This document shows, in pieces, positions 46,994 to 59,290 of a stretch of 64,000 bases of DNA. The notes under the pieces are model-generated. The model was given only the letters and a program-made list of their open reading frames with translations, did not search any database and was not told the DNA's origin. The translations under genes and the position numbers were made by a program. The stretch's first letter is position 1, and every line of letters starts with the position of its first letter. The DNA comes from Leptogorgia sarmentosa (Eukaryota), in assembly GCA_964658305.1 (NCBI GenBank), contig OZ210885.1, positions 13,392,001 to 13,456,000 on the forward strand. Reading direction: 5' to 3'.

Positions 46994-47409
46994 TATGGCG
47001 TGCCAAGATGGACAATATTACTTTATGTGCATAAATATAATATATAATTCAAATATATAATCTCAAATGTATTTTTATAAACCGAAATTAAAATATATAA
47101 AACATAACAGATATACGTACAACGAAACAGAAATATATGAAATGAAACAATCATATATGAAACGACATTTATATATGATATACTCAAAACGAAACATAAT
47201 ATAATTCCCAAATATATATAAAACGAATTTTGTCAAATATATAAAACGATATTTGACTAAAATTATATACAACGAAATTTGTCAAATATATAAAACGACA
47301 TTTGACTAAAATAAAACGACATTTGACTAAAATAAAACGACATTTTTGGCGGAGAAAGAGCGACGCAATCGAAGTAAATGTCGCGCCAAACGATATTTTT
47401 AGCGAGAGA
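46994..47409 (+). repeat. Left TIR (416 bp)
   Basis: Near-identical reverse complement of 58924-59290 plus one extra ~49-bp internal duplication. Confidence 0.92.
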
Positions 47410-47485
47410 AAAGTGCGACTGATTTGTCCGGAATAAATTTTCTGTGTTTATCTTTATGCAAACGCGTGTATGCAAATATCAAAAT

Positions 47486-50400
47486 ATGGCAGGCAATAAA
47501 AATTTGCAGAGTTTGTCCAATCTTGTCAAAGCAATTTCTCGATTGAGTGAAAATAGTACAGAGTCCCGTAATGGTGGGGAGACGCAAGAGAGTACAAACG
47601 ACGTGGAAGCAGCTATACGCACGCTCTTTCCTTCAACGAATGGATCGACACAAGCAAACCGAGATGAAACACGTGTGGCTGCGGAACATGGCGCGTTGAA
47701 TATGCCTGATCGTCGGATCCCTGAAAACACTGAAAGATTCGTGCCTAATCGCAAATATGGTTCGAGGAAACGGCCGAGAAACCTAAAAAGTTCGACCGGT
47801 AAAAAGCTTAAGTGCAACGAACAGAGAACCGTTCTTAAGGACGTAATTCTTTTGCATGGTCCAAAACAAGACAAAGTCCCTCGTGGCATGGCACGGGAAG
47901 CGCTATTTGCGCTTGGTTTTACTACGACGTTTGAACTTAGCAGTGCCATGGGGGAAAGTGAGATCAGGAGTCTACTGGAGGAAAAGTTTAAAAGCAGACT
48001 TGACTCTATTTCTAGAAAAGGCAACAAGTTTCAGTTCGTAAGAGCTATAAACAGTAAAATCATACCTATTGAAAATTTTAATCAACAGGAGGGGCATGCG
48101 ACATGTGACGGTAGACTTCTAAAGCACATTTCCGGTCAAGGACCACTGTACATTCGCGCAAATGAAGATATTAGTGCACCTCTACAGGCATACCTGAATT
48201 CCAAGCAGAGAAGAGATGAGAAAAGTGACGACACAGATAATGAGATAGAATCTGAAAGTAGCACTGGAGATGAGGAAGCAATTATACGAAATACAATGCA
48301 TAAGATTAAGCCTTGCCCTTCACCTATAGTACGAGTAGATCTTAGTAATTTGGATGATGATGCTGCTCCTGGTGAAGATAATGTTCTACGCTGTGACCCA
48401 TCACATACAACAGGGGAGTCGATATTAAATACAATGCCTTTAACATCCACACCCCTTGCAACAGAACAGCCTATACGTGTGCGTTGTCCTACATGTGAGA
48501 AAAGTTTTCTTAGCCATGAAATAGAGAGCCATGCTGATGGATGTGCTGAAGCAGCCTGGACTGGTTCAGAACACCTTGTGTATGCTAGATTAATGGCAGA
48601 CATAGAGGCGGATGACCAAGATCTTCCAGGAAACCAATCAGCTCCAGAGGAAAATGGTTTGGACCCTGTTCATCTACACTATGATGTGGAAACTACAGCT
48701 GGTGACAAAAGCCCAGCAGATATTAAGGCTGAATTGATTGGTACCTTGCAAACCCTGCAAACAAACATCAACAAGCGTACTGATAGGATTAATGTCCAGA
48801 GAACAAGTGTCCTTGATGACTACATTGATGCACGCAAGCGATGCCCTTGGATGCATCCTGAAAACAGACTCAGAGTTGTTTTCATTGGAGAACCAGCCAT
48901 TGATACTGGTGGCCCAAGACGTGAATTTTGTTCTGGTGAGTAACATTCGTTGCTTTTACAAAAAGTACATTTTAATAGAAAATCAATTTGTAAAGGAAAA
49001 TGCGTTCACATGTGAATATTAGGTATGTAAAATTGTAAATATTTTCAAGCATTTTCATGTTGACCAGAGTGGGCAAAAGACTGTTTTGTTTCTATATCTA
49101 AAACATAGTAAATTAATGCTGAGTTATGTGTATGACTGGTGTGGTTGCCCATATACCTTATTTAAAATGAATAATCTTCTGATGTGAAATATACTTTTGT
49201 CTTTCATAGATGTGCTTGTGCAGGTACAGGACCGACTTTTTGATCGGAATGGAATGCCAGTTGCAAGCACTCTGGCATTGACACAGGATCTTTTCAAATA
49301 TGCAGGTGAATTGATGACAATATCAATTATTCAAGGTGGGCCTGCACCAAACTTCTTGTCACCTGTCATATATGATGTAATTGCCAAAGGTCTGTCAAAG
49401 GCTGTGTATTCCCTGGATATGATTGAGGAATCAAATTTGAAAGAAATTGCAATCCAGGTACATTTCTGATGTAACTGAAGTACTGATTTAGGTCACAATT
49501 AAAAACACATCTTAGCAAATGCTTTTGCAATATAGAAATATTTTAAACATCCTATGTTGTTTTTGGATTGGCTCTGAATTTAAAACCTCAAGCATAATTA
49601 AGCATTTATTAAATTTTTATTTGGTTTTGTAAGCAATGAAGTCACCTTAATTCCTGTACCTACATGCCTATATCTAGATTGATTCTGTGGATACTGATGT
49701 CAGTTTACAATCTAAGCTCATGGAGGATGATGTTCTTGCTGTCCTTGATCAAGTTGGCTACAGAGGAATTCCCAACAGAGAGACCCTTGCATCAAAGGAT
49801 AAAATAGTCAGGTATTATTACATATCAATCAGTGTTAAGTGACTACATTAAAATGCAATTAATATTTTTTTTGCCCTAACCCCCTCTCAACCAATGACCA
49901 TTCAGTCCTATAGCAACATAATGTATGTAACACAACATTATATACTATAATAACATAATAATATATACTGCATGGTATAGAGTGTGGCAACAACCCTCCT
50001 TTGGACCATTTTATGACAGCATCATCAGCCCCCAATTTCATCACACCCAGAAGTGTATTAGAGTCTTCCTCTTAAGAACCTTGCTGAATCCTTCTCTGTT
50101 TAACTCAACTTTCCTGAAAACATTTCTGCCTTTTCATGCAGGTCTATAGTAATAAAATCACAAATTGAACCAAAGTTGGGCATGATAAAGCAATTGGAAG
50201 AGGGTCTATCTGTGTGCAAGCTATTGGATGCCATTCGTACGAAACCAAGTTTGTTCAGAGCTGTGTTTGTGCCTGGTTGCATATTTGACCAGGATGCTGA
50301 TGAGTTCTTGGATGGGTTGAAGGTTACCTACAGCGAGAACCAGCAAGAAAGAATGGTTGAAACAACAGTTTACAAACATTTTTGTGATTTTGTACTGTTT

Positions 50401-57300: not shown

Positions 57301-58900
57301 CCTCGTCAATGTGAGCGTTTACAACCAATTTCGTCTGACCATATTCCCTTTTGAGACGTCCCCATGCAGTAGTGTAACCAGTTGAACTCGGCTTAAGATT
57401 CGAGATTTTTTCCCTCACTTTCCCATTGACCATTTCCAGTAAGTAACCGAACTTTTCTTCATCGCTTATAGGCTTAGCATCAACTTGCGTAGCAAACATG
57501 TTTTCAAAACGCACCCAATCTGCTACTGTCCCATTGAATGGCGATATTTTCAACTTGGGAAGTTTGGCCTGAGTTGCTCTCGCGGCCTTTTCCATTTCCA
57601 GCTTTTTCTCTGCAAGTTTAAGCTCTGCTTGCAGCTTCTCTTCCAGGATTTCTCTCTCTTGCTGTCGAATTATTTCTCTATCGCGCACTTCTTCAATACG
57701 TTTCGCTTCTCGTCTCCTGTTCTCTTCTTCAGCCGTTATTATCGCTTGTCTTTTAGCCAAGAAGTCCGATAATTTATTCATCTCGTTGACCCAAGGCAAG
57801 TATTTGTCTCTCACGTCTTTCTTCCATTGTCGAATCGCTCGCGCTGTATCTTTCCCTTGTTCAACCTTCATCTCCTGGGCTATCGAGACGAGATTGTAAA
57901 TTTCATCTAAAATCGCCTTTGTTCGCTTGTTTACCGTTTCAATTTCCCTCACATCGCCATCCTCGATCAGTTCCTCTGTTTGTTCTAAGTAATATTGCAG
58001 TTTTTCGATCTCCTTGTCGATTTTACTTTCGACTTTCTGCTCGTTGGTATTAACACCCGCTTGTACGGTTTGTTGATCTTGTTCTAATTCCGTGTCGCTC
58101 ATTTTAATAATTTCGCACTGTTGTCATTAAATTAGTTCGATTTTCGCATTAAATATCCCTTGTTTATATCCTGGTCACGGCACCACTATATACCGAAGTT
58201 GTCCCCGATATACAACCCTCACGATATATTTGAAAAATAAACAAAAATACAAAATTCACTCCTTTCTCTGTTACGTTCACGCTTACACACTTCTACTTTT
58301 CTGTCACCCCTATTTTTAGAAGTTTTAATTACGTAATTGTTTTGAGACAGCATTACGTCATTGTCCTACGTTTGTCTCAACGTCGAGTTCACCATCATTT
58401 ATTTCACTATAGTTTAATGTCTGACCTACAGTCATTCCAAGTTCACTTCGTCGTCTACGCACTGTTCTCTCCGAAACACCAAGCATGAGAGCTATGTTTT
58501 GCCAGGAAAAATGCAGTGAACGTAAACCTTCAAGCTGCTGCTTTGGGATGAGAAAACGTGGTCGACCTGCACGTCCTCTAACGTTCTCTTCGATCGGGCA
58601 AACATAGTTACAATCGTCATTATCATTGAAGAAATTAAATCGCTCAACAAGTCTCGAGATACGTTCTTGAAACTCCGCAATAACTTCTTGAAAAAGAGGG
58701 AGAACGTCCTCTGGCCACGGCATAGCGTGGTAGAGCAATGATAAACCGCAAACAAATTCCTCACATCTAATTATTACTAACTCAGCAACAGCAACATCGT
58801 CAGTAAATGAATTACGCACCAGTTCATCATAAAGATTAAAACCCTGTCTCAAATAATCGATGACTTCTCTTGCAACTAAAAGTGGTTGTCTTTCCGCCAT
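51323..58900 (-). CDS. DDE (integrase-core, IS3-like) transposase, about 509 aa when reconstructed; interrupted by an LTR retrotransposon
   Basis: Segments 58900-58380 and 52594-52394 (exon 1, split by the insertion) plus 52130-51323 (exon 2) join in frame (1530 nt). [23 protein letters not shown]. Triad: [21 protein letters not shown]. Confidence 0.88.
52599..52789 (-). repeat. 3' LTR
   Basis: Identical to 58189-58379; preceded on the minus strand by a polypurine tract (about 52790-52799). Confidence 0.95.
52850..58102 (-). CDS. Bel/Pao Gag-Pol polyprotein with one in-frame TAG at 55031-55033
   Basis: Three Zn knuckles (CIFC..H..C, CFNC..H..C, CYHC..HH..LH), protease [20 protein letters not shown], RNase H HIFADAS, integrase HHCC + VDFAGP/SDNA/YERL. 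ORFs 55031-58102 and 52850-54904 share a frame. Confidence 0.92.
58168..58185 (-). promoter_or_regulatory. Primer binding site complementary to the tRNA-His 3' end
   Basis: The + strand reads ATCCTGGTCACGGCACCA, matching the eukaryotic tRNA-His 3' end (…TCACGGCA-CCA); 3 nt from the 5' LTR. Confidence 0.8.
58189..58379 (-). repeat. 5' LTR
   Basis: TGAGAC...CGGTATA, followed by the PBS. Confidence 0.95.
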
Positions 58901-58923
58901 GTTTCTATTAGTGGTTTTCCATG

Positions 58924-59290
58924 TCTCTCGCTAAAAATATCGTTTGGCGCGACATTTACTTCGATTGCGTCGCTCTTTCTCCGCCAAAAATGTCGTTTTA
59001 TTTTAGTCAAATGTCGTTTTATTTTAGTCAAATGTTGTTTTATATATTTGACAAATTTCGTTTTATATATATTTGGGAATTATATTATGTTTCGTTTTGA
59101 GTATATCATATATAAATGTCGTTTCATATATGATTGTTTCATTTCATATATTTCTGTTTCGTTGTACGTATATCTGTTATGTTTTTTATATTATAATTTC
59201 GGTTTATAAAAATACATTTGAGATTATATATTTGAATTATATATTATATTTATGCACATAAAGTAATATTGTCCATCTTGGCACGCCATA
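58924..59290 (-). repeat. Right TIR (367 bp)
   Basis: Reverse complement of the left TIR. Confidence 0.92.

Follow-up and report, generated by a model that had tools for sequence, protein, structure and literature searches.

IS3EU/GingerRoot elements are DNA transposons described as having TA..TA ends, terminal inverted repeats (TIRs), a 6-bp target site duplication (TSD) and a transposase with a DDE core of the IS3/integrase type (PMC10045372, PMC6839031). The IS3EU elements of rust fungi, with TAYGG..CCRTA ends and a 6-bp TSD, bear a second enzyme gene opposite to the transposase, which encodes an alpha-kinase, and they also carry TET/JBP genes (PMC12730594). Here we describe an element that shares all of these structural features but has a different partner gene, encoding a predicted HECT E3 ubiquitin ligase. 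It lies in a stretch of 64,000 nucleotides of Leptogorgia sarmentosa (assembly GCA_964658305.1, contig OZ210885.1, positions 13,392,001 to 13,456,000 of the forward strand; hereafter the window, numbered from its first letter), where positions 46994-59290 are an IS3EU/GingerRoot DNA transposon. It seems fairly probable that this transposon lineage has long included the HECT gene, which is likely retained for a benefit to the element's movement. The gene probably belongs to the normal working equipment of the transposon group and was not taken from a host in recent times.

The element ends, TATGGCGTGCC...GGCACGCCATA, are bracketed by two copies of GATGGC, the left TSD at 46988-46993 and the right TSD at 59291-59296. 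They start with TATGG and finish with CCATA, and fit the definition of IS3EU ends and TSD (PMC10045372, PMC12730594). The left TIR (46994-47407, plus strand, 414 nt), which holds short AAACGA-type sub-repeats, and the right TIR (58926-59290, minus strand, 365 nt) differ by three mismatches and by one additional 49-nt unit in the left copy. Two convergent genes are enclosed, with stop codons separated by 477 nt, and the unit measures 6,512 bp when a nested BEL/Pao retrotransposon is excluded. Four public sequencing runs of the same organism were compared with the locus (X1, X2, X5 and X6 are the runs with results). Contigs of X1 and X2 connect 46987 directly to 59291, with a single copy of the TSD and no element in between. 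In both runs the depth of the flank is far above that of the element. The flank is therefore probably repetitive, and besides an allele, other copies of this repeat may account for the empty site. The original prediction, made by a model from the letters of the window and a list of their open reading frames (ORFs), had named long TIRs, a GATGGC TSD, TAT..ATA ends, a compact unit of about 6.5 kb and two convergent spliced genes. The end alignment and the empty-site contigs confirmed the boundaries, the computed length agrees, and both genes were recovered, as frames of 786 aa (HECT) and 509 aa (transposase).

The transposase gene is on the minus strand. Its exon 1 is split by the nested element into an N-terminal part ahead of the insertion (58380-58900), encoding a helical region with a helix-turn-helix (HTH), and a part past it (52394-52594). 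A predicted GT..AG intron of 263 nt (52131-52393) separates these from exon 2 (51323-52130), which encodes the catalytic core and a C-terminal tail. The length of 509 aa is obtained when the nested element and one copy of its 4-bp TSD are excluded. Pfam assigned the protein to rva_4 (E 1e-69), with HTH matches under the cut-off. The catalytic triad (DD34E) consists of D244, D301 and E336, and D244 falls 100-300 residues from the start, as expected of the first Asp in IS3EU. The best named matches were transposases of Hydractinia (52%) and Oculina (49%); together with an APAF1-like gene in the window, they point to an animal host that is probably a cnidarian. Two motifs agree, by eye, with the Repbase entries IS3EU-1_CVi, -4_DR, -1_SK and -3_CGi and with the coral element AD_GR-001, and by motif the protein falls in one of the two subgroups of the Repbase IS3EU alignment (both in the supplement of PMC10045372). 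Together with the ends, the TSD and the rva_4 match, this motif agreement upholds the assignment to IS3EU that the original prediction had made by the Repbase definition.

The HECT gene, on the plus strand, consists of five exons and four GT..AG introns and encodes 786 aa with no internal stop. Exon 1 (47486-48935) encodes N-terminal helices, a predicted beta-grasp (aa 113-228), an acidic linker, a UBZ-like finger (aa 334-353) and the start of the N-lobe. It is followed by exons 2 (49210-49457), 3 (49678-49811) and 4 (50142-50413), the first of which gave a weak Pfam HECT match, and by exon 5 (50589-50845), which holds the C-lobe and the stop codon and matched Pfam HECT above the cut-off (27 bits, E 4.4e-6). 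Splice joints of exons 2, 3 and 4 are present in run contigs. The introns are precisely absent from contigs of X5 (three of four) and X6 (four of four), two runs of one study that are not recorded as RNA; the simplest reading is that these contigs are cDNA. Contigs of both runs also cover exon 2 of the transposase. The protein terminates as PTASTC(753)...GFGFGNL*. HECT ligases have a Phe near position -4, and here Cys753 of 786 stands in the range of about 30-35 residues from the end expected of the catalytic Cys, with a Phe at -4. The predicted 5-exon product of about 786 aa, with its PTASTC Cys and -4 Phe, has thus been borne out by the Pfam match and by the intron-skipping contigs.

Between aa 421 and 777 the spliced protein matches a HECT profile made without it (E 2e-28). 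A profile of 18 relatives matches AREL1, TOM1, HUWE1 and E6AP (best E 1.3e-13), and its Cys is aligned to the Cys of the HTC motif in AREL1 and TOM1. A bilobed HECT fold is predicted from a relative, metagenome locus L005 (see below), in which both lobes were modelled and matched HECT structures (E 5e-12). A single-sequence search of the PDB with the HECT protein of L056 found no match, whereas the profile search matched HECTs. A search by the last exon alone found two proteins. For exon 1, 24 relatives were found, which share a conserved block (aa 113-228) and a CPTC..HADxC finger. The block was modelled as a beta-grasp (pLDDT mostly 70-93), for which the best structural match was the ubiquitin-like domain of USP7 (Z 6.9, root mean square deviation 3.0 Å, 84 residues); none reaches Z 8 or stands out, and the best Foldseek E was 0.015. 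The 50 structure matches listed we take, partly by title, to be ubiquitin-like. The finger matched zf_UBZ under the Pfam cut-off (E 0.023). The prediction that the HECT domain is preceded by a ubiquitin-like fold and by a UBZ-like finger is new here. Exon 1 has no RING or PHD match in Pfam at E 0.1, and its model contains a beta-grasp and a single small finger, not the three N-terminal RING/PHD-like fingers of a G2E3 orthologue.

To see whether the HECT gene is a trait of the lineage, a metagenome was scanned with an alignment of 60 transposase sequences, by which at least 520 stretches were confirmed; the best 80 were used as loci. The scan patterns cover the subgroup of the window's transposase, and the second Repbase subgroup (VWHIDGYDKLKP type) is outside the HECT count. 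Of 177 downstream ORFs with a length of 95 aa or more, 135 were searched against Pfam (all 120 on the minus strand and 15 of 57 on the plus strand), as were 20 further ORFs chosen by a HECT profile, whose seeds were 16 Pfam-positive ORFs and the window protein. A convergent HECT gene within 7 kb of the transposase was detected by profile in 37 of the 80 loci, and in 28 of the 35 where at least 2 kb of downstream sequence was available. Independently, 21 of the 37 passed the Pfam cut-off, and none of 8,030 reversed decoy ORFs matched the profile. Grouping of the loci by transposase identity (80%) left 29 informative families, of which 23 had a convergent HECT gene; this substantiates the co-occurrence anticipated in the original prediction. 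Where 2 kb or more of upstream sequence was available (18 loci), only three showed an upstream HECT gene. Identity between the HECT-positive transposases and that of the window is just 40-53%, which makes the pairing an old one. A scan for TIRs and TSDs in 32 loci of at least 4.5 kb yielded four elements with TATGG..CCATA pairs and an exact 6-bp TSD (L050, L065, L077 and L079; 6.8-7.6 kb). HECT sequence is present in all four; TIR-bounded copies lacking the gene, which the prediction had named as the mark of a one-off capture, were not among them. Two AT-rich 15/20 TIR candidates of L068, as well as a match of L003 that was internal, were not accepted as element ends. The exon-1 profile found the ubiquitin-like region beside 11 of the 80 transposases; this is the independent figure, as the ubiquitin-like profile contained one wrongly cut seed (P0130), and seeds made up 13 of the 16 matches it gave among the loci. 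Scans of viral contigs with the transposase or exon-1 alignments gave zero loci.

Between diverged relatives the HECT gene is under purifying selection, with a ratio of nonsynonymous to synonymous substitution rates (dN/dS) of about 0.2. Comparison of L003 with L005 gave HECT values of 0.24 and 0.19 (intervals below 0.41), and 0.215 for their transposase. In the whole set of 12 HECT comparisons, two near-saturated pairs gave 0.2 and 0.1, and four saturated ones gave no value. The Cys at the catalytic position is present in all 32 C-lobes, which were chosen by profile and are about 30-70% identical to their nearest neighbours, and in 146 of the 150 best matches in a library that holds 1,060 HECT clusters at E 1e-30 or better. 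The two genes share their nearest neighbour in 11 of 32 families, compared with a mean of 1.0 and a maximum of 8 after shuffling, a count in which reciprocal pairs are not independent. The tree of transposases comprises the window and the metagenome loci only. Clubmoss GingerRoot elements are known to carry host gene fragments (PMC6839031), and the HECT gene could by analogy be a host gene captured once and carried passively as Pack-type cargo. This explanation is largely refuted, and we consider it very improbable: the same gene recurs on the same side and in the same orientation in the 23 families, next to transposases as distant as stated above, its dN/dS is low between elements, and the 22 exon-1 relatives that were aligned show 23-98% identity, several of them belonging to multi-member clusters (up to 45 members).

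Several observations weigh against the reading of the HECT gene as a ligase gene long kept by the lineage. The dN/dS values come from relatives and not from the window's own gene, and in the four young HECT comparisons the intervals include 1. Six of the 29 families (L015, L068, L062, L016, L069 and L070) are without a convergent HECT gene: it is in tandem in L015 and upstream in L068, only the ubiquitin-like part is present, upstream, in L062, and none was found by profile and Pfam scan in L069 and L070. In L016 a convergent AAA+ ATPase gene (PF00004, AAA_lid_6; 2665-3741, minus strand) stands in place of HECT, and the sister loci L021, L022 and L028 are too short to tell. The HECT gene of L079 is internally deleted, and in X1 contigs the HECT gene has indels and a nonsense mutation, which implies that copies decay after insertion. 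Distances of HECT and transposase are weakly correlated (Mantel rho 0.095, p 0.056), and in L065 and L077 the HECT proteins are 72% identical and the transposases are not nearest neighbours; the weak correlation and the mismatched pairs suggest either that HECT genes are occasionally swapped between elements or that a domain of 75 residues has lost its deep signal. Moreover, the HECT domain of human and mouse G2E3 has been described as non-functional (PMC3673628). The window protein might likewise be a catalytically dead scaffold or a decoy that binds ubiquitin or E2, since it is far from solved HECTs (12-20% identity in the fold matches) and has a Ser in place of His two residues ahead of the Cys. 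We regard this as rather unlikely, because the Cys is invariant among C-lobes as diverged as those above, the Phe is retained at -4, and both lobes are predicted in L005.

Some further arrangements were observed among the loci. In one transposase clade the partner gene is either in tandem downstream (L015:10968-14774, L064:3046-3561) or divergent upstream (L062:2679-3212), thus its orientation is not fixed. In a separate clade HECT is upstream (L018:277-1308, L053:1280-3067, and L068:6911-8777 with 2074-3100), and no TIR pair was found in these loci. Sister loci of this clade, L048 and L075, share 87-94% identity with a protein of Paraglomus (P0116), and the clade with upstream HECT may therefore be fungal. 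A small related ORF precedes the ligase gene in one clade (L050:15097-15528, L079:14264-14554, L015:10968-11420, L063:16053-16199); the three copies scanned have no Pfam match, and the window has no counterpart.

The HECT protein would quite probably accept ubiquitin from an E2 of the host at Cys753 and then pass it to a target. Transposons that carry ubiquitin-system enzymes include Zisupton, Ginger1 and some MULEs, which bear Ulp1/OTU proteases. In phage Mu, ClpX drives disassembly of the transpososome, i.e. the transposase has to be cleared after strand transfer, and the same need may exist here. Ulp1/OTU enzymes are proteases, however, and ClpX is a host unfoldase, whereas the window element has a separate gene for a predicted ligase. 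Our leading, still tentative guess is that the target could be the element's own transposase, which, in excess or left on the DNA after insertion, would be removed by the host proteasome machinery. We lean towards the transposase because close families keep the gene pair together, because the second gene elsewhere encodes an alpha-kinase or an AAA+ ATPase, enzymes that act on proteins, and because of the parallel with Mu. HECT ligases, alpha-kinases and AAA+ ATPases would all be protein-modifying or remodelling enzymes. A complex prediction with HECT residues 1-245 and three transposase pieces, in which alignments were not used, gave a score of 0.02 (mark 0.34).

Host silencing factors rank second as the target. 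If the ligase were an anti-silencing or host-manipulating factor, it would degrade host chromatin, small-RNA or DNA-repair proteins instead of the transposase. The TET/JBP genes of the rust-fungus elements have been proposed to counter methylation silencing (PMC12730594), which lends this idea some plausibility. The HECT proteins also diverge faster than the transposases, and their N-terminal domains vary, as the ubiquitin-like profile matches only two of the 150 best library proteins and six inspected ones have a different conserved N-terminal region. The apparent swaps of HECT genes between elements would fit a target outside the element as well. On the other hand, Pfam detected no chromatin-reader domain in the window's HECT protein, and the pairing kept in close families speaks against it too. 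On balance we find a host target doubtful and prefer the transposase.

HECT and ubiquitin are unmentioned in the accessible main texts of PMC10045372, PMC12730594, PMC11934779, PMC6839031, PMC4455052 and bioRxiv 2021.09.26.461848, and in the accessible supplements of PMC10045372 and PMC12730594. IS3EU or GingerRoot elements with a HECT gene were not reported in any paper retrieved by a literature search, which did not reach Repbase entry texts, bioRxiv supplements or subscription journals. Repbase may already record the gene, as some of its entries have names with the endings 1p and 2p, a sign that second proteins are annotated. The Class IV HECTs (G2E3, GL-Metazoa and GL-Bikonta; PMC3673628) are, like the window protein, highly divergent animal HECTs with varied N-terminal domains. 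They are treated there as host genes, and the accessible text contains no mention of transposons ('transpos' occurs 0 times). G2E3 has RING/PHD fingers, which the window protein lacks, and the likeness to G2E3 and GL-Metazoa lies in the general features just named. Among ten HECT clusters of the library that were looked up, two had names, 'uncharacterized' or 'HECT domain-containing', and not G2E3; these names lend no support to the suggestion of the original prediction that such elements may account for many G2E3-like gene models. Near-identical HECT proteins of the window's HECT family are encoded by at least seven loci in Astyanax mexicanus (P0319, P0386-P0397), where they are annotated as uncharacterized host genes.

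A broader proposal is speculative, and we think it unlikely to hold in full: an entire IS3EU subgroup, in animals and probably in some fungi, would run its own ubiquitin ligase to control the transposase, in a slot exchangeable between HECT, alpha-kinase and AAA+ ATPase. The orphan divergent HECT genes of fish and invertebrates (the 1,060 clusters) would then mostly be transposon genes, from which host G2E3-type HECTs might derive. If a common animal transposon lineage does encode HECT ligases, which are currently counted as host genes, then HECT counts and trees of fish and invertebrates include mobile genes, and a poorly explained class of divergent HECTs gains a testable origin. The element would also offer a small two-gene system for the use of ubiquitin by eukaryotic transposons, be it in transposase clearance or in disarming host silencing. 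The locus is a practical starting point for such studies, with its intact frame, contig-supported splice sites, empty site and insertion-free form of the transposase.

This insertion-free form comes from contigs of X1 and X2, which connect 52594 to 58380. In the window, the nested BEL/Pao long terminal repeat (LTR) retrotransposon occupies 52599-58379 on the minus strand and interrupts the transposase gene, so this copy is non-autonomous; its HECT gene is still open although the copy cannot move by itself. The retrotransposon is young. Its LTRs (52599-52789 and 58189-58379) are 191 nt each and identical, its TSD is ACGT (4 bp), and its gag-pol frame has one in-frame stop near 55.0 kb. Apart from the LTRs, the Pao peptidase A17, DUF1759, reverse transcriptase and integrase domains of a BEL/Pao element were recognized. 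BEL elements usually have LTR ends of TG..CA and a 5-bp TSD. This one has TG..TA ends and a TSD of 4 bp, with a tRNA-primer-like site beside the 5' LTR.

A very high-copy short repeat was observed within the transposase intron, at about 52238-52347. ORF pieces of the multi-copy flank, with no Pfam match, lie on either side of the transposon (46493-46729 and 59368-59580, minus strand). A direct repeat pair (45014-45123 and 60629-60747) and an outer inverted repeat pair (41363-41553 and 62354-62545) enclose the region, which suggests further nesting. A palindromic foldback-like element of 1.06 kb (43784-44846) is followed by a 16-bp tandem repeat (about 44870-45010). Farther away, at 10924-13807 on the minus strand, the window contains exons of an APAF1-like NB-ARC gene (NB-ARC E 4e-23, APAF1_C E 1e-11).

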